A stretch of DNA of 64,000 nt, taken from assembly GCA_963791045.1 (NCBI GenBank), contig CAWBQK010000013.1, positions 224,001 through 288,000 of the forward strand, written 5' to 3'. The position numbers and the translations under genes are program-made. The stretch comes from Candidatus Latescibacterota bacterium. Its GTDB lineage: Bacteria; Krumholzibacteriota; Krumholzibacteriia; WVZY01. Below are positions 52,563-61,743 of this stretch, piece by piece. The notes under the pieces were generated by a model. It saw nothing but the letters and a program-made list of their open reading frames with translations, did not search any database and was not told the origin of the DNA. The first letter of the stretch is position 1. Each line of letters starts with the position of its first letter.

Positions 52563-52604
52563 CGATTTTACCCGGCGCAAGAAATGATAAAAGTCTTGTT
52601 CAAA

Positions 52605-52646
52605 TCAAAGACCCGGAAACGGGACCTCGCCGGCCCCGCCCCGGGT
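52605..52646 (-). terminator. Probable terminator of the cit-like operon
   Basis: Minus-strand hairpin ACCCGGGGCGGGGCC-GGCGA-GGTCCCGTTTCCGGGT followed by CTTTGATTT, 35 bp after the citF stop. Confidence 0.6.
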
Positions 52647-52681
52647 ATTTGACTTCATCAGTCGAAGAACATCTCAATCGA

Positions 52682-54247
52682 TTACTCTTCAACCTGCCAC
52701 ACGGTATCGATAACCGTTCCATCAACCCACTTAATGACGGCGATCGGCTTATCGGTTACCGGCGGTTCCTCCGGCTTGCCGCCGATGATTCCTTCGATCT
52801 CGTCTTTGAGATCACGGATACGGCGAATCGGGAGACTCGTGTTCTTAACCGCTTTGAGCAAATCCTTCCGCCGAGGATTGATGGCGATCCCGCGCTCAGT
52901 GATCACGACATCGACGAGTTCGCCGGGGCCGGTCACCGTGGTCACCTTGTCGACGATCACCGGTATCCGGTCGCGGAAAGAAGGAATGGCGAGAATCGTA
53001 CATCCCGAGGCGAGACAGTTTTGCCAGCCGCCGATGCCGTGGAGCAGGTAGCCGTCCGAATGGGTCACGACATTGGCGTTGAAATTAACATCAACCTCGG
53101 TCGCCCCCAGAACCGCCGCGTCGACCAGACTGGCGAAGTTGCCCTTCCCGTGGAAGTTGTACGACGTAAACGGCGTCGTCGCTACGTGCGAAGGGTTTGA
53201 ACCGATCGACTCGACGGCGGCGAGATCAAACGTCTGTCCGTCGAGGATGTAATCGGTGAGCCCCTCGTTCAACATATCGACAAGATACTGTGTCGATCCG
53301 CCGCGGACAAAACGCGCCTTGACGCCGTCTTCGCGCATCATGTTTTTGAGAATCTCGACGAAGGCCAGAGCGATGCCGCCGGCACCCGCCTGGATGGAGA
53401 ACCCATCGCGCATGATCCCCGATTCCCGTATAAAACGGGCCACATATTCAGCGGTGAGAAGCCGGTCGGGACTCTTCGTGATTTGCGTCGTGCCCGATAC
53501 GATCTTCGCCGGATCGCCGATCTTATCTACTTCGACAACAAAATCCACATTGTTGCCTTGCACCTGCCACGGGATGCACGGAAAGGGGACGATGTTGTCG
53601 GTGACGACAATTACACGATCCGCATGAATCGAATCGGCGAGTGCGAAACCGATCGAGCCGCAGGCCGAAGGCCCGTGCGATCCGTCCGAGTTGCCAAACG
53701 GATCCGCCGTCGGCGCCGCGATAACAGCGACATCGACGTGAACCTCGCCGTCCTGGATCGCCTGCCAACGGCCGCCGTGCGATCGCAGCACACCCAGGCC
53801 GCGCATCTTACCGTGCGACGCGTAGCGCCCGAGGGGGCCGTTCATACTTCCCTCGATATGATGGATCACACCGCGATCCATAAGATCTATCATCGGCTCA
53901 TGACACGGAAACGACGCGGTCGGGAACCACATCAAGTCCTTGACCCCGAGTTCGGCTGCGGCGCCGAGCGCCATGTTCGCCACCTTGTCTCCGTTGCGGA
54001 GATGGTGGTGACTCGATATCGTCATCCCGTCCTTGAGTCCGCATTTCTTGAGAGCTGTCTTGAGATCGCGAACGCGCTTGTCCCCGTTTGCCGGATAATC
54101 CCGGCACGAACGAATCGGCGCCCCATACTTGTGACCTTTGGGTTTGTACGCGCCGACTCCCAGATAGGGAACCTGCTCGCGACCGTTAACAATCTTGGGG
54201 ACTTTTCGCCCCACCTTATTCACGACAAAGTCGGATTTACCGCTCAT
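52682..54247 (-). CDS. citF: Citrate lyase alpha subunit / citrate CoA-transferase-like
   Basis: GLKDGMTISSHHHLRNGD, RSHGGR, QAGAGG, DGQTFD, LGATEVDVNFNANV, GIGG, VITERGIAINP. Confidence 0.9.
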   Translation of the reverse strand: MSGKSDFVVNKVGRKVPKIVNGREQVPYLGVGAYKPKGHKYGAPIRSCRDYPANGDKRVRDLKTALKKCGLKDGMTISSHHHLRNGDKVANMALGAAAELGVKDLMWFPTASFPCHEPMIDLMDRGVIHHIEGSMNGPLGRYASHGKMRGLGVLRSHGGRWQAIQDGEVHVDVAVIAAPTADPFGNSDGSHGPSACGSIGFALADSIHADRVIVVTDNIVPFPCIPWQVQGNNVDFVVEVDKIGDPAKIVSGTTQITKSPDRLLTAEYVARFIRESGIMRDGFSIQAGAGGIALAFVEILKNMMREDGVKARFVRGGSTQYLVDMLNEGLTDYILDGQTFDLAAVESIGSNPSHVATTPFTSYNFHGKGNFASLVDAAVLGATEVDVNFNANVVTHSDGYLLHGIGGWQNCLASGCTILAIPSFRDRIPVIVDKVTTVTGPGELVDVVITERGIAINPRRKDLLKAVKNTSLPIRRIRDLKDEIEGIIGGKPEEPPVTDKPIAVIKWVDGTVIDTVWQVEE

Positions 54248-54284
54248 TGTCTGCCTCCACGATCAGTCGTTTTGTTTGCGTATC

Positions 54285-55544
54285 TTACTTTTTTGAAATC
54301 AACCCCGCGCGTTTCGCCGTTTCCACGAGCCGTTGTGCCCGCAGCACGACCGGCGGGTCGACCATCTTCGTCCCCAGGCTGACGACGCTTAAGCCTTTCT
54401 TCTTTGCGGCATCGAAAGCGGCAACGATCTTGAGCGCCTTTTCGATTTCTTCGGGTCCGGGGGCGAACGCCTCGTGAATCACCCGGATCTGACGGGGGTG
54501 AATACACCCCATTCCTTCGAATCCAAGACCGCGGGCGCGAACACCCCACGCTTTGAGACCGTCCGAGTCGCCCACATCCCCGTAGACCGAATCGATCGCC
54601 TGCACGCCGGCGGCACGCGCCGCGTTGGCCAGGCGGACACGCGCGAACTGCGATTCGTCTCCCTCCCTGGTCTTGCGAACGCCCATGTCGGCGGTATAAT
54701 CCTCGAGCCCGATGGTCAGAGCCACCACGGTATCGGCCGCGCCCGCTATCGCAAACGCGTTCTCGACACCAAGCGCTGACTCGATGATCGGCATCAACCA
54801 CACCGGCGATTTGATTTTGTGCTGCCCTTGGATCTTTTTGATCCGCTTGTCGACGTCGGCCACTTGTTCGGCGGTTTCGACCTTCGGGATCAACACCAGG
54901 TCCGGCGACTCCGGAATGATTTCGTCGAGATCATCGAGTCCCATGGGAAGCTGGTTTATCCGGACCATCCGTTCGGCGCCGAGAAAATCGATGCATCGAA
55001 GTCCGTTTCTGACCAGAATCCGGGCCGAGTCTTTCTCGCCGGGATGAACCGAATCCTCGAGATCGAGAATCACGGCGTCGGGTCTATGAATTCCCGCATT
55101 TATCGCGAATTTGGGTTCGTTACCGGGAAGATAGAGCCTCGACCTGCGCAGCCGGTCGCTTGCCGTCGGTCCCGACTGCTTGATCTTCCGCCCGATCGGT
55201 GTGCGTCCCTTGCACCCGGCGCGCCTTAGCGCCGTCTCAACTCTCGCGCCAATAACGAACGGCAGCCCTCCCTTGTCTTCGACTTCAACCCTGGCGTTCT
55301 TGACACCGTAACCGGCGAGAACCTTCTTTACCGTCTCGCGGATCGACTTGCCAAAAAACGCCTCGACCTTCGAACGGAGCTTGAGTTCCACGCCTCCTTT
55401 GTCCGACAATGTCACCGATACAAAGAGATCGGACTTTACATCGTCTCCGCGGCGGCCGGCCTCGCCTTTCTTCGGCGCGGGCCGCTTCGCCCGCGCGCCC
55501 GCGCGTCCCCGTGCTTTCACGGTTTTCTTCTTTGCTTTGGGCAT
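54285..55544 (-). CDS. citE: Fused citrate lyase ACP-like (CitD) and citryl-CoA lyase-like (CitE) protein with a basic N-terminal tail
   Basis: CitD-like SKVEAFFGKSI..DKGGLPFVI.AR.ETA; CitE RRSRLYLPGN, LDLEDSV, VRIN, PK, IES, GLEDY, DSV, IHPRQI, KMVDPP. Confidence 0.88.
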   Translation of the reverse strand: MPKAKKKTVKARGRAGARAKRPAPKKGEAGRRGDDVKSDLFVSVTLSDKGGVELKLRSKVEAFFGKSIRETVKKVLAGYGVKNARVEVEDKGGLPFVIGARVETALRRAGCKGRTPIGRKIKQSGPTASDRLRRSRLYLPGNEPKFAINAGIHRPDAVILDLEDSVHPGEKDSARILVRNGLRCIDFLGAERMVRINQLPMGLDDLDEIIPESPDLVLIPKVETAEQVADVDKRIKKIQGQHKIKSPVWLMPIIESALGVENAFAIAGAADTVVALTIGLEDYTADMGVRKTREGDESQFARVRLANAARAAGVQAIDSVYGDVGDSDGLKAWGVRARGLGFEGMGCIHPRQIRVIHEAFAPGPEEIEKALKIVAAFDAAKKKGLSVVSLGTKMVDPPVVLRAQRLVETAKRAGLISKK

Positions 55545-55569
55545 TTCCCTTCCTCTTTTCCGCGTAAAC

Positions 55570-56751
55570 CTAGAGCTTCGAAATAATCGCGTCGGTCATC
55601 TGTATCGCCGTCGCCGCACCCTTAGAAATAGCGTCGGGCCCACCCGCGAGTTTCATCATATCGTACGGGCGAACCTTGCCTTCCTTGACAACCGCGGCAA
55701 CCGCGTCGCGCATCCGCTTCGCCTTGTCGCCTTCGCCCACATGATCGACGAGCATCGCCGCGCTCAACACCATCGCGATCGGGTTGACGATCGGCGGATC
55801 GAGGTTTTCATATTTTGGCGCCGAGCCGTGCGTGGGCTCGAATACGGCGACTTCGTCGCCTATATTTCCCGAGCAGGCAAACCCGAGACCGCCGACAAGA
55901 CCGGCGAACGCATCGGAAACGATGTCGCCAAAGAGATTGCCCGCGACGACCACGCCGTAGATTTCCGGATTCTTGGTCAGCCACATCATCTGCGCATCAA
56001 TATTGGTCGACCACAGTTCGATATCAGGATACTTCTCCTTCACGCTGGCCGCCACGTCTTCGAGCATTCCCGAAGTCTCACGAAGCACGTTCGGCTTTTC
56101 GCAAACGGTGACCGATGGGTACCCGTGTTTCTTCGCGTAGGCGAAAGCGGCCTCCATGATTCGCGTGCACGCATTGCGCGTAAACATGCGGACAGACACC
56201 GCCAAATCTTCGCCTTTGACATCCGCAAACGGTTTGTATTTTGGATGGGTCCCGAAACCCTTCCGCACCTCTTCGGGCGGATTTGTCCATTCCAGGCCGC
56301 AGTAGAGCCCCTCCGTGTTCTGACGGAAGATCACCGCGTCGACTTTCGGCTCTTCGAAGCCACCGTCGGCGGTCTGGCGGATAAAGTTGAGTGGATTGCC
56401 GGGGAACGACCGGCAGGGACGGATACAAACATCGAGATTGAATTTCTGCCGCATCCCGACGATCGGGCTGAAGTAGACGTATCCCTTGTCACGAAGCTCT
56501 GGGCTGAGCTCTTCGGCGGCCTTGTTTTTCGGCTTCGAAGTGATCGCGCCGAACAACCCCAGCTTGTGTTCTTTCAAGAGCTTGAGGGTTCTGTCGGGGA
56601 GCGGATTTCCCTCTTTGATCCAGAAGTCCCAACCAATATCCGCATGAACGTAATCCGCCTCAAACCCAACCGCCTCCAACACCCGTACGGACTCCGGAAG
56701 AACCACTTTGCCGATACCGTCACCGGGCATCGTTACTACTGTACGCTTCAT
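55570..56751 (-). CDS. Isocitrate/isopropylmalate-family decarboxylating dehydrogenase, homoisocitrate dehydrogenase-like
   Basis: PGDGIG, LFGAITS, YFSPIVGMRQ, RQNTEGLY, KPNV, NLFGDIVSD, FEPTHGSAP. Confidence 0.88.
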   Translation of the reverse strand: MKRTVVTMPGDGIGKVVLPESVRVLEAVGFEADYVHADIGWDFWIKEGNPLPDRTLKLLKEHKLGLFGAITSKPKNKAAEELSPELRDKGYVYFSPIVGMRQKFNLDVCIRPCRSFPGNPLNFIRQTADGGFEEPKVDAVIFRQNTEGLYCGLEWTNPPEEVRKGFGTHPKYKPFADVKGEDLAVSVRMFTRNACTRIMEAAFAYAKKHGYPSVTVCEKPNVLRETSGMLEDVAASVKEKYPDIELWSTNIDAQMMWLTKNPEIYGVVVAGNLFGDIVSDAFAGLVGGLGFACSGNIGDEVAVFEPTHGSAPKYENLDPPIVNPIAMVLSAAMLVDHVGEGDKAKRMRDAVAAVVKEGKVRPYDMMKLAGGPDAISKGAATAIQMTDAIISKL

Positions 56752-56793
56752 AATCGTTACATCCCCCTTCACAAATGTTTGTTTTTGAAATCG

Positions 56794-58743
56794 CTACGAG
56801 AGACCGAGTCGTTTGCGAACGAGATTCTCGATGCCTCCCGCGATCACCAGCGACTGAGGAACCGAACCCAGCGGCGGGAAACCGAACGTTTCGCCTCGGT
56901 GGGTCAATGTTCCGCGTGAAAAATCGATGACCAGCTCGTCGCCGGGAATAATCGTCGGCTTGCCCGATTCGATGTCACTCGCGAGTTCTTCGCGGAGCCG
57001 TTGGACGAGTTCCGGACATTCGATACACACAAATCCGTTGTTGTAAGCGTTTCGCAAATACGTCTGCGAAAAGCTTCCAGCTATAACAAGTGCGATGCCC
57101 TTCGCCTGAAAGGCAGTCGCCGCCTGCTCGCGACTCGATCCCGTTCCGAAATTGTTCCCTCCGACGAGCACATCGCCCTCGAATGTGTTTTTCGAAAACT
57201 CGGGATCGTAGTTCTCCATCAGGACACGCGACATTTCCTCGCGTGTCATTCCCTCTTTGTAGGTATAGTCCTTGCCGTAGATCCCATCGGTGTTGAGATT
57301 GTCCTGCGGGACAAATACGAGACGTCCCTGGATCTTCTCGGGGAACCCCGATTGAATCTCCACGCTCTCACCACCGGCGCCGGGGCCGGATTCGATTACA
57401 GAGAACTGTTTGTCGGGACTGCGCCCGTCGACGACATCGGGGCCGGTGATAAAACCGGCGATGGCCGACGCGGCAACTACTTGTGGACTCGCCAGATACG
57501 CCTGCGCGTCGCGCGACCCCATTCGACCTTTGAAGTTCCTGTTCGTCGCCGAGATCCCTACCTCTCCGGGCTCGAGAAGCCCGGTCCCAAGACCGATGCA
57601 CGGTCCGCATCCGGGGGGAAGCGGACGCGCGCCCGCCTCCAGGAGCGTCCCCCATACACCGCTGGCTTCCGCGGCATCCTGGATTTCCCGGCTGGCTGCG
57701 GCAACGTAGAACTCGACACCGTCCGCGATTTTTTTGTCTTTCAACACGGCCGCGGCGACTTCAAGATCGTTGTACCGGCTGTTCACGCACGAGACAAGGT
57801 ACGCTTTGCGAATCGCAATTTTCTCTTTTTCGATATCGAAAACCGATCGCATCACCTGGACCGAATCGGGCCCCGATACATGCGGACTAACATCTTCCAA
57901 GTTCACTTCAATCCGGGCCGCGTAGTTCGCGTCACCGTCCGGCGACGGCGGGCTGGTCTCCCAGTTTGCAATGTCACCTTCGGTAAACCGCTCAACACCC
58001 TGGGCGCTGAGCACGGCATGCCGTTCTTTGAGATATCGGATCGTAACGTCGTCGACCGGGAACCATCCAACAAGCGCTCCCCACTCGGTCGTCATGTTTG
58101 AAATGGCCATCCGCTCATCCATGCTCAAACCCGCGACGCCGAGCCCCGTGAACTCCACCGCGGCGTTAAGCACCTCGCCCTTGTTGTAAAGACCGCAGAG
58201 CGTGACGATGACATCCTTGCCCGTGACGCCTTCGCGAAGTTTGCCGCTGAAAACAACTTCAATCGTGCGCGGAATCTGCCACCAGAACTCGCCGGTGGCC
58301 CAAATCGCGGCCGCATCGGTCCTGACGACCGGCGTCCCAAGCGCGCCGAGCGCCCCGTACATGTTCGAATGCGAGTCCGACCCCACGACCAGCGAGCCGG
58401 GAACGACATAGCCGTTTGCGACCATGATCTGGTGCCCGATCCCCGTCCCGGCGGGATAGTGATCAACACCCTGCTCGGCGGCAAATTCGGCGATAGCCTT
58501 GTACTTCGCCAGGTTGGCCTCGGATGTATTCTGGATATCGTGATCGAGCGGAAAAACCGGCTGCCGCGGGTCGTGGATTTTCGCGGCGCCGATCGCCTTG
58601 AACTTGTTCATAACCGCCGCGGTGTTATCGTGCGTCATGACGTGCCGCGGACGCAACGACACGACGTCGCCGACACGCACCGGCCGGTCGGGCCCCTCGG
58701 TCATGTGCGCCTGGACAATTTTTTCGACAATGGTCTGCCCCAT
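56794..58743 (-). CDS. lysF: Single-chain homoaconitase (fungal Lys4/LysF-like aconitase family)
   Basis: GQTIVEKIVQ, MTHDN, DHD, GIGHQ, DSHSNMYG, SCVNSR, PGCGPCIG, NLNTDGIY, NFGTGSSREQA. Confidence 0.82.
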   Translation of the reverse strand: MGQTIVEKIVQAHMTEGPDRPVRVGDVVSLRPRHVMTHDNTAAVMNKFKAIGAAKIHDPRQPVFPLDHDIQNTSEANLAKYKAIAEFAAEQGVDHYPAGTGIGHQIMVANGYVVPGSLVVGSDSHSNMYGALGALGTPVVRTDAAAIWATGEFWWQIPRTIEVVFSGKLREGVTGKDVIVTLCGLYNKGEVLNAAVEFTGLGVAGLSMDERMAISNMTTEWGALVGWFPVDDVTIRYLKERHAVLSAQGVERFTEGDIANWETSPPSPDGDANYAARIEVNLEDVSPHVSGPDSVQVMRSVFDIEKEKIAIRKAYLVSCVNSRYNDLEVAAAVLKDKKIADGVEFYVAAASREIQDAAEASGVWGTLLEAGARPLPPGCGPCIGLGTGLLEPGEVGISATNRNFKGRMGSRDAQAYLASPQVVAASAIAGFITGPDVVDGRSPDKQFSVIESGPGAGGESVEIQSGFPEKIQGRLVFVPQDNLNTDGIYGKDYTYKEGMTREEMSRVLMENYDPEFSKNTFEGDVLVGGNNFGTGSSREQAATAFQAKGIALVIAGSFSQTYLRNAYNNGFVCIECPELVQRLREELASDIESGKPTIIPGDELVIDFSRGTLTHRGETFGFPPLGSVPQSLVIAGGIENLVRKRLGLS

Positions 58744-58796
58744 TATCATCCTCCCATGTGTACTCGTGCAGATGGCACAAAATCGTGTACGTCACG

Positions 58797-58892
58797 GCAC
58801 CGAGTGGACAAAGGTTTTTGGTGAATCCGCAGGACGCTAATATTCAAATGCGTCCGAGGACCTGAACAAAAAAACCTTCGTCCACTCGGTGC
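58797..58892. repeat. Long intergenic inverted repeat with nested hairpin
   Basis: 23-bp arms GCACCGAGTGGAC(A/G)AAGGTTTTT at 58797-58819 and 58870-58892; inner GGACGC/GCGTCC stem. Confidence 0.9.
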
Positions 58893-58905
58893 GTATCCTT
58901 CTCCG

Positions 58906-60285
58906 CTAGCGAATATCCGCTTTGCAGAGATCCATCAGTTCGGTGATCGAGCCGATATTTTCGAGGCCCCACACCGCGTCCTTCAACCGTTTCCTCGCGT
59001 CGTCCGACAGGACCGGCCTGGCCAACGCGTCAAACTTGTCTTCGATTTCGGCATCGGTGAGCGGGTTGCGTGGATCGCCTTTTGGATAGTCGAGCTGTTT
59101 TTCGAATTCCTTCCCGTCCGTCGTCGTGACCTTAACCTTCACACGCTGGAGTTCGGGGAAAACAGCTTCGATCTCCGGATCGGCAACCACCACGACCTTG
59201 TTCAGCTGCTCGCGGATCTTGTCATCCATGATCCGCTCCTGCTCGAACTGCGCCGGTGTCACCTGACGGTCGACAATCGCCGCCGCAATCACGTAGGGCA
59301 AACTGTGATCCGCCGTCTCCTTCGAGCGCGGGTCGTACTTGCTTGGGTCCGCGAGAATGTCCGCCGCACGAGCGAGTGAGCGGATGTGGACCTCTTTGAC
59401 CTGGTCGGGCGAAAGATCATTTTCAGTTATAATATCGAGAGTGGCCGATATAGGCGCGTGTGTCAGTGCTTCGGTCGGAAATGCTTTCATCCCGCATTTT
59501 TCAATACGCCACGAATCTCCAAGCCCATCGGTCAAAATATTCAGCTTCCATTCGGGGCCGAAACAATGGGTCAGGCCTTCCTTGCCATCGACGACATGCT
59601 CGGGTCCCGTGTAGCCTTTTTCGGCGAGCAGCGCCGCCATCACGCCACTCTGCGTCGCCATCGGATCGACGGTGTTCTTCATCATCGTAAGCTTCCCAGC
59701 CGTAACCGCACCGAGCGTTGAGTGCCGCGAGGCGGAAATACCGATGGCGTGCTGGATCTTTTCCCAGTCGAGACCCAGCATCCAGCCGGCAACGATCGGA
59801 GAAACAAAAGCGGTCAGTGTCGCGTGGTGCCAACCGCGCTCCCGGATCCCGGGGAACGCCGCTTCGCAGAACCGCATCTCAAACTCATGACCCAAAACGA
59901 TACCTACGATCAAGTCTTTGCCGTTTCCGCCGGCCCTTTCACCGCAGGCGAGCGCCGCTGGAATAATATCCGATGGGTGCGACGGATCCTGCTGCCAGTA
60001 AATGTCGTTGTAATCCATGACACGAACCATCAACGCGTTGGCAAGCGACGCCGTCACCGCGTCGGTTTTCTTTCCCGTACCGAGAATAGTCGCGTTTCCC
60101 TTGCCGCCGATTTCCTCGAGGACATCGAGCGCGATCTCCGCGTCTTCCTGGCGCAGTCCGCCAAACGCACACCCCAGAGAATCAAGTAGATAACGCCGCG
60201 CTTCGTGAACGGCGTTCTCGCCGATGTGTTCGAACTTCAAATCGGCGGCCCAGCGAGCCATTTTGGCTGTAATTGTTTCCGACAT
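58906..60285 (-). CDS. prpD: MmgE/PrpD family dehydratase (2-methylcitrate dehydratase-like)
   Basis: LDSLGC, RVMDYND, SHPSD, GWHH, KAFP, ETADHSLPY, PKGDPRNP. Confidence 0.88.
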   Translation of the reverse strand: MSETITAKMARWAADLKFEHIGENAVHEARRYLLDSLGCAFGGLRQEDAEIALDVLEEIGGKGNATILGTGKKTDAVTASLANALMVRVMDYNDIYWQQDPSHPSDIIPAALACGERAGGNGKDLIVGIVLGHEFEMRFCEAAFPGIRERGWHHATLTAFVSPIVAGWMLGLDWEKIQHAIGISASRHSTLGAVTAGKLTMMKNTVDPMATQSGVMAALLAEKGYTGPEHVVDGKEGLTHCFGPEWKLNILTDGLGDSWRIEKCGMKAFPTEALTHAPISATLDIITENDLSPDQVKEVHIRSLARAADILADPSKYDPRSKETADHSLPYVIAAAIVDRQVTPAQFEQERIMDDKIREQLNKVVVVADPEIEAVFPELQRVKVKVTTTDGKEFEKQLDYPKGDPRNPLTDAEIEDKFDALARPVLSDDARKRLKDAVWGLENIGSITELMDLCKADIR

Positions 60286-60338
60286 CCCTAAATCGCCTCC
60301 GCTTCTTGCAACCGGTTCGTCTTGAGACCGGGCAACTA

Positions 60339-60875
60339 CTAAAGGTTTTTGAATGGTAGGAAGCTCATAAAGTCCGCATGATGAACTATGGTCGCTTCGG
60401 TGGTTCTTTTGACGAGTTCCCCTTCACCTGCATGTGCGGCGATGATGTGACACACATCGTCGGGCACTCCGCATTCCATCGCGAGGGCCACACCGGTAAA
60501 AGGATGTCTGAGAAGTTTTCCCCGCACACTCTGCTTCGCCTCGCCGTCTATTTTCTCGTATTCGAGAAGTTTCCCGACATCGGCGAGAATGGCTCCCGCG
60601 ATTACAGTATCCATGTCAATCGCGAGCGCTTTTCCCAAAAATTCCTTCATCGCTTCCGCTGATTTTCGCGCGATGTGCACAACACATCTTTTGTGTTCCA
60701 TAAAAGTCGATGGGCAATTCGGAACGAGCAGCGTAAAAGGAATTCGTTCCAGATCGTCCGCGGTGAGCGGACTCAATTCCAACGCTTTCATCCACGTCTT
60801 TTCAACACTCTCACGAAGCTCGGCATTCTCAATCCATTCCAACTCCGGCCAGAGTTTCGCCACTGCCTCACGCAT
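60339..60875 (-). CDS. HD/HDIG-superfamily protein with HD changed to AD
   Basis: EH..V, AGAILADVGKLLEY, RHPF.G, IIAAH, IVHHAD; GGAGG RBS. Confidence 0.8.
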   Translation of the reverse strand: MREAVAKLWPELEWIENAELRESVEKTWMKALELSPLTADDLERIPFTLLVPNCPSTFMEHKRCVVHIARKSAEAMKEFLGKALAIDMDTVIAGAILADVGKLLEYEKIDGEAKQSVRGKLLRHPFTGVALAMECGVPDDVCHIIAAHAGEGELVKRTTEATIVHHADFMSFLPFKNL

Positions 60876-60956
60876 CGAAAATTCCTCCTGCGAAGATACC
60901 GTTGTTCCGGCCCGTTCCGGCGGGCCACAGGCCCCATATCCATTACTCAACACAAC

Positions 60957-60985
60957 AGATTACGTGGTCTCAAAGCCAATGTCAA
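60957..60985 (-). promoter_or_regulatory. Sigma-70 promoter heading the HD-prpD-lysF-dehydrogenase-citDE-citF operon
   Basis: TTGACA-17 nt-TAATCT. Confidence 0.65.
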
Positions 60986-61041: not shown

Positions 61042-61743
61042 TTACAACGATGCGAAGGAGTCCATCGCCTCAGATATAAACATCTCGACGAGCCGCCGAT
61101 CCTTGCGGCCCGACTCGTCCTCGACACCCGTATGGGAATCAACCCCGGCGGGGCGAACGACACGGATAGCCTCGGAAACGTTACCGGGGGTGAGCCCCCC
61201 GGCGAGGATAACCGGAAGCGGCGAAAGCTCGACGAGCCGCCGACTGACCGACCAGTCGTGGGTCTTGCCCGTCGCCCCCGACCGGCCCGTGGCGGGATCG
61301 AAAGTATCCGTCAGGAAAGCGTCGACAAAGGGGCTCATTTTCTCGACGTCGGCGAGAAGATCGGAGAAACTCTCCCTCCGAACAATGAGCGATTTGATCA
61401 CAAAGAGGTCTCCGGCGCACCTTCCCAGGGCGGCGAGTTCTTCGAGCGCCAGATCGCCTTGCAGCTGGACGGCCGGGGCGTTGACGTCCCGGCACAAAGC
61501 CTGGATCTCCTCGGCGCGGTCGAGATAAGTAATCACGATCCCGTGTAACGGCGGCCGGAGCGAATCGATTATCGCTCGCGCCGCTTTCTCAGAGAGGTCC
61601 TCCCTGCCACCGCCAAGACGAAGCGGAAATCCGAGGGACCCGGCGCCGCATTCGCTTACCATTTTCGCCTCATCGTCATCGATGATTCCGGCAATTTGAA
61701 TCAGCGGCCGGCCGTCCTGGAATATTCGGGGTTTGTTCTTCAT
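61042..61743 (-). CDS. trpF: Phosphoribosylanthranilate isomerase-like (TrpF fold) protein
   Basis: VQLQG, LTDT, GATGKTHDW, ILAGGLTPGNV, GVDSHTGVE, KD; the N-terminal KICG motif reads QIAG. Confidence 0.75.
   Translation of the reverse strand: MKNKPRIFQDGRPLIQIAGIIDDDEAKMVSECGAGSLGFPLRLGGGREDLSEKAARAIIDSLRPPLHGIVITYLDRAEEIQALCRDVNAPAVQLQGDLALEELAALGRCAGDLFVIKSLIVRRESFSDLLADVEKMSPFVDAFLTDTFDPATGRSGATGKTHDWSVSRRLVELSPLPVILAGGLTPGNVSEAIRVVRPAGVDSHTGVEDESGRKDRRLVEMFISEAMDSFASL

Follow-up and report, generated by a model that had tools for sequence, protein, structure and literature searches.

A 64,000-nucleotide stretch of the genome of a Candidatus Latescibacterota bacterium (assembly GCA_963791045.1, contig CAWBQK010000013.1, positions 224,001 to 288,000; referred to here as the window) contains a unit of six co-directional minus-strand genes at window positions 52682-60875. 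In the order of transcription, the genes encode an HD-superfamily protein (HD), an MmgE/PrpD-family enzyme, a Lys4-type homoaconitase (HACN), a dehydrogenase of the isocitrate dehydrogenase (IDH) family, a CitD-CitE fusion (CitDE), and CitF. It is well established from the comparison of loci below that the six genes form a single unit, which is maintained across several phyla of soil and sediment bacteria. The region is read here as a module of six genes that is complete in itself, moves laterally, and encodes a tricarboxylate pathway, with a probability of about one half. The route proposed, held at even odds, is 2-oxoadipate ↔ homoisocitrate ↔ homoaconitate ↔ homocitrate ↔ 2-oxoglutarate + acetate.

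Conservation of the Six-Gene Unit

The loci compared are the best 80 of at least 584 related places found with the PrpD-family protein as the query and one genome per species. They belong to metagenome-assembled genomes labelled as Latescibacterota, Gemmatimonadota, Rhodothermales/Bacteroidetes, and Acidobacteriota (Terriglobales, Thermoanaerobaculales), and their gene content was read by tblastn with the window's proteins. Whichever of the six genes a locus contains, they follow the order HD-PrpD-HACN-dehydrogenase-CitDE-CitF on the same strand; this is true of all 80 loci. All six are found in 62 loci, and 16 others are cut by a contig end. Loci L038 and L053 contain HD-PrpD-HACN only, followed by unrelated genes. 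Median identities to the window's proteins across the 80 loci range from 62 to 78%. Clustering of all flanking open reading frames (ORFs) gave no flanking family common to more than 10 of the 80 loci. Two larger clusters (25 and 21 loci) were taken as antisense ORFs, because their coordinates overlie the HD and dehydrogenase genes on the opposite strand.

The association also survives rearrangement and dispersal. At locus L091, the order is dehydrogenase-HACN-HD-PrpD-CitDE-CitF, and all six genes are kept. Within family f6, the genes are dispersed as a PrpD and HACN pair, a CitDE and CitF pair, and HD alone. The genomes tested for dispersal retained CitF (10 of 11), the IDH-like gene (11 of 11; 48-58% identical in f6), and HD (5 of 5). 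The first-pass annotation of this DNA had proposed one linear route and named conservation of gene order as the check. The order proved to be conserved, and the case for one pathway over two juxtaposed ones was strengthened by this conservation, by co-occurrence after dispersal, and by the lack of citG, citX, and (in the window's genome and its complete relative G001) any LeuA-family gene.

That a citrate-fermentation lyase lies by chance beside enzymes of the alpha-aminoadipate or leucine type is scarcely credible. Every protein does belong to a well-known family, as this explanation would have it, but the order is kept in 80 of 80 loci of several phyla, the genes co-occur after rearrangement and dispersal, and neither citC, citG, or citX, nor a linked citrate transporter, nor LysX accompanies them. 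The explanation is already contradicted by the conservation data.

Of 121 genomes sampled from the window's phylum, 24 carry the PrpD-family gene, as do 8 of 8 genomes of the window's family. The window's PrpD-family protein is 80-84% identical to those of Gemmatimonadota and Rhodothermales versus 61-77% for those of its own class, which points to lateral transfer of the module. A plasmid collection returned distant MmgE/PrpD proteins only (31-36% identity), and plasmid carriage is unsupported.

Several loci carry additional genes. An ADP-forming acyl-CoA synthetase (ATP-grasp_5, CoA_binding_2, Succ_CoA_lig) directly follows CitF in four Gemmatimonadota loci (L072-L074 and L078), and a thiolase with a KAS-III-like protein follows CitF in five others (L002, L003, L006, L062, and L067; also Gemmatimonadota). 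Processing of the acetate or acetyl unit is a possible role for both additions. In 8 loci, a sigma-54 activator is found upstream of the operon. A DinB_2-family gene (approximately 155 aa) lies between PrpD and HACN in loci L020, L022, L023, L030, L037, and L064, which are mostly labelled Acidobacteriaceae.

Layout and Signals of the Operon

The window's genome is 3.66 Mb in length and 80.9% complete. The six co-directional genes and their families, as given by the first-pass annotation, were confirmed by ORF listing and by Pfam and NCBIfam scans; the ORF calls reach position 60953. The features of the operon, all on the minus strand, are as follows.

60957-60985, minus: promoter-like site TTGACA-17-TAATCT, 82 nt upstream of the likely HD start
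60339-60875, minus: HD-superfamily protein, 178 aa, with an A-D dyad replacing H-D (PF01966)
58906-60285, minus: MmgE/PrpD-family enzyme, 459 aa (PF03972 and PF19305)
58793-58896, minus: long hairpin in the PrpD-HACN gap (folding)
56794-58749, minus: fused homoaconitase of the fungal Lys4 type, 651 aa (TIGR00139)
55570-56772, minus: beta-decarboxylating dehydrogenase of the IDH/homoisocitrate dehydrogenase (HICDH) family, 400 aa (PF00180)
54285-55544, minus: CitD-CitE fusion, 419 aa (PF06857 and PF03328)
52682-54247, minus: CitF-type acyl-ACP (acyl carrier protein):carboxylate transferase, the lyase alpha subunit, 521 aa (PF04223)
52601-52646, minus: terminator-like hairpin and T-rich tail, 3' of CitF (sequence reading)

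Intergenic gaps by the ORF calls are 37, 25, 21, 156, and 53 bp, a range of 21-156 bp that is close to the 25-162 bp first given. The promoter-like motif is present and its -35 element matches at 6 of 6 positions. It had been called near-consensus, which is an overstatement, because the -10 element shares only 3 of 6 positions with TATAAT and a consensus scan left the site out of its list. Downstream of the CitF stop, a G+C-rich hairpin is followed by CTTTGATTTG (approximately 52646-52601). The terminator claimed there can be read as a hairpin with a T-rich tail; a pattern scan did not list it.

The PrpD-HACN gap is filled by a near-perfect hairpin of approximately 100 nt, with a minimum free energy of -69 kcal/mol and a z of -6.07. 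It is present as a single copy in the window's genome, save one 41-nt partial match, and was not found in any of the 80 related loci. This hairpin could serve as a signal for processing or attenuation within the operon, or it could be what is left of an inserted element. A match to the Rfam family mir-9256 (35 bits versus a gathering score of 80) was taken as chance.

Just upstream of the operon, on the same strand, lies a TrpF/PRAI-like gene (61042-61743, minus; 107.7 bits versus the TrpF cut-off of 215). Its ORF call (389 aa) is probably too long, as the N-terminal 156 residues look spurious and overlap ppx. Among the 80 loci, this operon-adjoining gene and a thioesterase are shared with one Latescibacterota relative only (L001).

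Homoaconitase and Dehydrogenase

HACN scores 739.4 bits against the homoaconitase model TIGR00139, above the cut-off of 529.9. Its Aconitase (residues 9-432) and Aconitase_C (residues 462-580) domains are fused, and it carries SCVNSR and GCGPCIG, which we take to be the Fe-S ligand motifs. The small-domain specificity loop reads YTY(R/K). The last residue is basic in 45 of the 46 operon homologues matched by motif search, and the exception has a garbled frame. Counterparts of this loop read YLRT in M. jannaschii HacB and YLVY (hydrophobic) in isopropylmalate (IPM)/citramalate isomerases. The basic residue favours a substrate with a third carboxylate, and activity on cis-homoaconitate/homoisocitrate is predicted.

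The dehydrogenase is 400 aa in length (PF00180), and its true start may be the ATG at 56751. Its best NCBIfam matches are to AksF2 (259.3 bits versus a cut-off of 540) and AksF (253.3 versus 500), with a third model at 133.4 versus 680; the HICDH equivalogs tested were NF040626, NF040619, and NF040855. The protein is also far below the cut-offs of the IDH equivalogs. Aligned with E. coli Icd, it keeps all of the catalytic residues (R119, R129, R153, Y160, K230, D283, D307, and D311). The S113 position and the "TS" motif of Icd are kept as well, presumably the residues that hold the gamma (distal) carboxylate of isocitrate; the same positions read G-G-G in E. coli LeuB. In 8 of 8 aligned operon-type sequences, Ile takes the place of N115, and the dehydrogenase has I-V where isopropylmalate dehydrogenase (IPMDH) has L-L.

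Cofactor residues follow Icd more closely than LeuB. The Icd determinants of NADP binding K344, Y345, V351, and Y391 are kept and R395 is K/R, where E. coli LeuB has D/I/A/G. Because these determinants are kept, use of NADP(H) is predicted. Known HICDH and IPMDH enzymes use NAD, and an NADP-dependent enzyme of either kind would be out of the ordinary.

Taken together, the TIGR00139 score, the basic loop residue of HACN, and the S113 and "TS" positions of the dehydrogenase favour a tricarboxylate of the homocitrate series as the substrate. The same architecture could, however, serve another series, such as (S)-citramalate/citraconate/3-methylmalate (pyruvate + acetate ↔ 2-oxobutyrate), an isopropylmalate-type series, longer AksF-like 2-oxo-dicarboxylates, or another natural tricarboxylate. 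The I-V pair in place of the IPMDH L-L and the missing Arg85 of T. thermophilus HICDH are consistent with this, as is the fact that the dehydrogenase scores best with the AksF enzymes, which tolerate different chain lengths. In addition, the CitE domain has a match (148 bits) to RipC, a citramalyl-CoA lyase, citramalate lyase is itself a CitDEF-like ACP enzyme, and the window's genome and its complete relative G001 contain no LeuA, LeuB, or HMG-CoA-lyase-family genes. Against these stand the TIGR00139 score above the trusted cut-off, the conserved basic loop residue that is hydrophobic in IPM/citramalate isomerases, and the "TS" and S113 positions that are common to Icd and HICDH but G-G-G in E. 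coli LeuB. Another series is possible but unlikely.

MmgE/PrpD-Family Protein

Both superfamily domains are present in the PrpD-family protein (PF03972, 243 bits; PF19305, 159 bits). It does not reach any of the PrpD equivalogs (TIGR02330, 65.1 versus 458; NF006943, 88.5 versus 575; NF042438, 92.7 versus 950), and it is 23% identical to E. coli PrpD. Among solved structures, it scores best with IDS epimerase (143 bits), followed by B. subtilis IRG1 (122 bits) and cis-aconitate decarboxylases (CAD; approximately 100 bits), whereas PrpD structures reach only 56-63 bits. The first-pass annotation had treated PrpD dehydration as established. With scores of 65-93 bits versus cut-offs of 458-950 and a closer relationship to IDS epimerase and IRG1/CAD, that assignment is not supported. 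NCBIfam contains no specific model for this protein or for HD. Environmental homologues are 81-96% identical, with at least 8000 metagenome candidates at E ≤ 1e-3.

Residues aligned with CAD D93, H103, H159, K207, and K272 (the numbering that we take to apply to CAD) are invariant. This conservation, along with the structural relationships, would suit an IRG1/CAD-type decarboxylase or an epimerase, in a branched route that makes or degrades an itaconate-like unsaturated acid. The residues are, to our understanding, general to the family, and neither an itaconyl-CoA hydratase nor a family III CoA-transferase is linked among the flanking genes of the 80 loci. A decarboxylase would also leave the dehydrogenase and the lyase without a place in one route, though the six genes co-occur. 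Such a function is very unlikely. In our reading, the PrpD-family protein serves as an adaptor that reconciles the stereochemistry of a si-type lyase with that of the hydratase.

Paralogues of this protein (52-54% identical) occur within the window's own family in a different conserved context (L086:2205-10374 and L088:8842-14352). This context consists of a PD40 beta-propeller protein, the PrpD-like protein, a B12-binding radical SAM protein, and a pyridoxal-phosphate-dependent decarboxylase. The decarboxylase is directly adjacent in L088 and follows a TonB-dependent receptor in L086. The paralogue cluster is another uncharacterised system.

Lyase Subunits and Carrier Priming

CitF matches PF04223 with 440 bits and narrowly misses the cut-off of TIGR01584 (490.3 versus 501.45). 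Its identity to E. coli CitF is 37% over 481 aa. CitDE is composed of a PF06857 carrier domain at residues 37-109 and a PF03328 (HpcH_HpaI) lyase domain at residues 134-350. The carrier exceeds the cut-off of TIGR01608 citD (67.1 versus 63.5). The lyase domain does not reach that of TIGR01588 citE (261.5 versus 443.4), and is 38% identical to E. coli CitE.

Ser38 of CitDE (in "RSD") aligns with E. coli CitD Ser14, which we take to be the prosthetic-group attachment site. It is kept in 23 of 24 operon-type locus rows, and the single exception (L018) has a broken N-terminus. In distant CitD-CitE fusions (34-45% identical; P0138, P0142, P0144, P0149, P0156, P0162, P0184, P0210, and P0256), the carrier serine is replaced by C, G, N, D, A, or Q, and their CitD may for that reason lack the prosthetic group. 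The CitDE ORF of the window opens with a Lys/Arg-rich stretch of approximately 30 residues (55455-55544) that is missing in most homologues. The true start may lie further downstream, or the stretch may be a disordered tail.

CitG was found in 0 of 11 carrier genomes, CitX in 0 of 6, and CitC in 0 of 1 (the window's genome); the E. coli proteins were detected as a control each time. The absence of citC, citG, and citX first noted in the operon and window was borne out genome-wide, including by tblastn with the E. coli queries. No citrate transporter is linked to the operon among the flanking genes of the 80 loci. An ordinary citrate lyase was considered and rejected on these counts of CitG, CitX, and CitC and on the scores of the CitE and CitF domains, which are under the equivalog cut-offs.

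Genome-Wide Enzyme Content of Carriers

No HMGL-like gene (the LeuA/homocitrate synthase family) was found in the window's genome or in the complete relative G001, and tblastn of the window's genome with E. coli PrpB, LeuA, CitC, CitG, and CitX gave no match. One citrate synthase is present in the window's genome, outside the window on contig C17, and citrate synthase is present in 5 of 5 carrier genomes. The reported absence of synthases and prpB from the operon and window can thus be extended to the genome for homocitrate synthase and PrpB, but not for citrate synthase. The suggestion that carriers might lack gltA was not borne out.

An AcnA-size aconitase-family gene was found in 7 of 8 carriers, and G006 has the operon copy only. 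Other IDH genes also occur in carriers, including a monomeric IDH in G001. The operon dehydrogenase is the only Iso_dh member in G001 and in the window's assembly, the latter at 80.9% completeness. Leucine synthesis and HMG-CoA-lyase-dependent leucine breakdown seem absent from both genomes, because neither has an HMGL-like gene and the sole Iso_dh member is that of the operon. The operon as the cell's own citrate to 2-oxoglutarate segment was rejected, because carriers have the canonical enzymes outside the operon and a second isomerase is not required for citrate.

LysX, which marks the LysW-type lysine route asked after by the first-pass annotation, was above the cut-off in 0 of 8 carriers (best 98 bits versus 275.6) and DapA in 5 of 8; a role in lysine synthesis is therefore unsupported. 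LysA was above the cut-off in 1 of 5 carriers, and G004 has a full-scoring LysA alongside the operon. No LysA-like gene was found in G001. A scan for the saccharopine dehydrogenase domain, as a marker of lysine breakdown, was strong in the window's genome and weak in G001, and this marker is too unspecific and inconsistent between the two.

These counts bear on the same enzymes running in the synthetic direction, where CitDE and CitF would act as an acetate- or acetyl-ACP-dependent "homocitrate synthase" that extends 2-oxoglutarate to 2-oxoadipate for lysine or another product. The lack of an HMGL-like synthase in the window's genome and in G001, and the low count for LysA, would suit this. 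A Lys4-type homoaconitase with a dehydrogenase is also the classical biosynthetic pairing (PMC3556520). The counts for LysX and DapA and the LysA of G004 count against it, and in none of the 80 loci is an aminotransferase or a later gene of lysine synthesis linked to the operon. The NADP-type determinants contrast with the NAD used by known HICDH and IPMDH enzymes, and the lyase would lack the drive of a synthase. A synthase is driven by thioester hydrolysis, and a lyase is not. On balance, synthesis is unlikely.

Proposed Pathway and Direction

The first-pass interpretation stands as far as a single tricarboxylate pathway is concerned; a lack of citrate synthase in carriers, a role in lysine synthesis, PrpD dehydration, and the promoter quality are unsupported or in need of correction. 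The steps below, with their substrates, stereochemistry, and direction, are those that we infer for the five catalytic proteins, which would fit one line from 2-oxoglutarate + acetate through to 2-oxoadipate + CO2.

In the first step, an ACP-dependent lyase (CitF with CitD-CitE) would interconvert a 2-hydroxy-tricarboxylate with acetate and a 2-oxo acid. Its most likely tricarboxylate substrate is (S)-homocitrate, the si-type enantiomer, with 2-oxoglutarate as the corresponding 2-oxo acid. In the second step, the PrpD-family enzyme and the Lys4-type homoaconitase would shift the hydroxyl group via cis-homoaconitate to give homoisocitrate. The PrpD-family enzyme may act here as a dehydratase or as an alkene or stereo-isomerase. 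In the third step, the NADP-type IDH-family dehydrogenase would interconvert homoisocitrate with 2-oxoadipate and CO2.

The lyase geometry offers a reason for two isomerases. CitE, named "citrate (pro-3S)-lyase" in NCBIfam, would make or break the pro-S arm, and with 2-oxoglutarate it would give (S)-homocitrate by the priority rules. A second isomerase would be needed, because the product of a pro-3S-lyase places the acetate-derived arm beyond the anti-elimination of the aconitase family. According to PMC3556520, (2S,3S)-methylcitrate requires a syn-eliminating dehydratase, as aconitases carry out trans-elimination only, and fungal homoaconitases interconvert homoaconitate and homoisocitrate only. 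A homocitrate-type lyase product would share the stereochemical problem of methylcitrate, which would explain a PrpD-family enzyme beside a Lys4-type hydratase and a lyase.

Given this pathway, the catabolic direction (2-oxoadipate + CO2 + NADPH to 2-oxoglutarate + acetate) is slightly favoured over the synthetic one. Cleavage is somewhat likelier because the lyase lacks thioester hydrolysis and the dehydrogenase is of the NADP type.

Several points weigh against the homocitrate route. The dehydrogenase is below all HICDH cut-offs (259 versus 540). The Val in its "SPIVGMR" sequence aligns with Arg85 of T. thermophilus HICDH, which presumably recognises the distal carboxylate, and SPIV is kept in operon homologues. 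The PrpD-family protein is nearer to an epimerase and to decarboxylases than to a proven dehydratase. A conserved CitD serine in genomes that contain no known priming enzyme means that the lyase may differ in its working from the canonical one. No source of 2-oxoadipate was identified in the carriers, and the searched literature contained no precedent for the reductive carboxylation of 2-oxoadipate. The substrates are assigned solely by family similarity, and the window's genome is only 80.9% complete.

The fullest form of the proposal is a widespread, horizontally transferred homocitrate lyase pathway that reverses 2-oxo acid elongation and, by NADPH-dependent reductive carboxylation, would shorten 2-oxoadipate to 2-oxoglutarate and acetate, with a carrier primed without CitG or CitX in a new process that involves the A-D HD protein. 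With every part taken together, it is doubtful.

HD Protein

The HD protein matches PF01966 with 33.9 bits versus a cut-off of 22. The dyad of its H...HD...D metal motif reads A98-D99 in 22 of 22 aligned homologues, as the "HD(AD)" label of the first-pass annotation had indicated. The ORF call is 60339-60953, and the start is probably the ATG at 60875, because a database protein of 178 aa is 100% identical. The protein is 73-85% identical across phyla. At least 8000 environmental candidates were found at E ≤ 1e-3, and the 120 listed are 79-100% identical. Invariant residues include H61, H67, D99, H124, H143, H148, H165, H166, and D168, many of the conserved residues being His, Arg, or Lys.

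In 79 of the 80 loci, the HD gene is the direct upstream neighbour of the PrpD-family gene, and the exception is a locus that starts 229 bases before the PrpD-family gene. It also adjoins the PrpD-family gene in L091, L038, and L053, and is kept even when unlinked. The structure model has a pLDDT of 85.6. A fold search with this model returned generic HD proteins only (YhaM, Pfu 1xx7, PgpH, PhnZ, and Ddi2) and no functional lead, and a protein atlas lookup returned a cluster of its own kind only. A complex prediction for HD and the PrpD-family protein gave a score of 0.00, which is evidence neither way.

This pattern suggests that the HD protein is an obligatory accessory, for which there are two candidate roles. 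It may prime or regenerate the CitD thiol where CitG, CitX, and CitC are absent, or it may carry out a metal-dependent hydratase or isomerase step alongside the PrpD-family enzyme.

Novelty and Significance

Neither the operon nor a homocitrate lyase was found described in the searched literature, which did not extend to most subscription journals. All of the families are known already. What is new is how the genes are combined, that CitD is fused to CitE, that priming genes are missing, and which cofactor is predicted.

If the proposal is true, the operon would be a new connection between C6 and C5 2-oxo acids, tying carbon of the lysine/aminoadipate type to the tricarboxylic acid cycle by means of an ATP-independent ACP lyase and a CO2-consuming step. 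CitD-type carriers would be able to work without the only known priming system. It would also provide a first function for the highly conserved A-D variant of the HD fold and place the closest relatives of fungal Lys4 in a bacterial setting. The operon genes occur in soil and sediment phyla that are abundant but little understood. Because automatic annotation gives "citrate lyase", "2-methylcitrate dehydratase", and "homoaconitase", attempts to reconstruct the metabolism of these phyla would be misled.

Comparison with Known Systems

The operon shares with E. coli citCDEFXG a CitF-type transferase, a CitE-type Claisen lyase, and a CitD carrier domain with an aligned serine. It differs in that CitD and CitE are fused, CitC, CitX, CitG, and a linked citrate carrier are missing, and the lyase genes share the operon with an isomerase pair and a dehydrogenase. 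The citramalate lyase of glutamate-fermenting clostridia is also an ACP-dependent, CitDEF-like enzyme, and acts on a 2-hydroxy acid of the si series other than citrate. We know of no linkage of it to a PrpD-family enzyme, a homoaconitase, or a dehydrogenase.

The operon and the methylcitrate cycle both couple an MmgE/PrpD-family enzyme to an aconitase-family hydratase, probably for a common reason, in that a si-type Claisen product resists anti dehydration by aconitases (PMC3556520). Unlike that cycle, the operon route has no PrpC or PrpB, and the isomerisation is followed by an oxidative decarboxylase rather than an iso-acid lyase.

The first half of the alpha-aminoadipate pathway (fungal Lys20/Aco2/Lys4/Lys12; Thermus) likewise has a Lys4-type homoaconitase and a HICDH-like dehydrogenase, and a second enzyme is needed there for homocitrate to homoaconitate (PMC3556520). 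The operon differs in having a lyase in place of the synthase, no later steps of the LysX type, and an NADP-type dehydrogenase.

The methanogen AksA/AksD/E/AksF system is set apart from the operon by the bacterial carriers, the fused hydratase, the lack of an AksA-type synthase, and the score of 259 versus the cut-off of 540. The two are alike in that AksF2 and AksF are the best matches of the operon dehydrogenase and in the logic of elongation or shortening in three steps.

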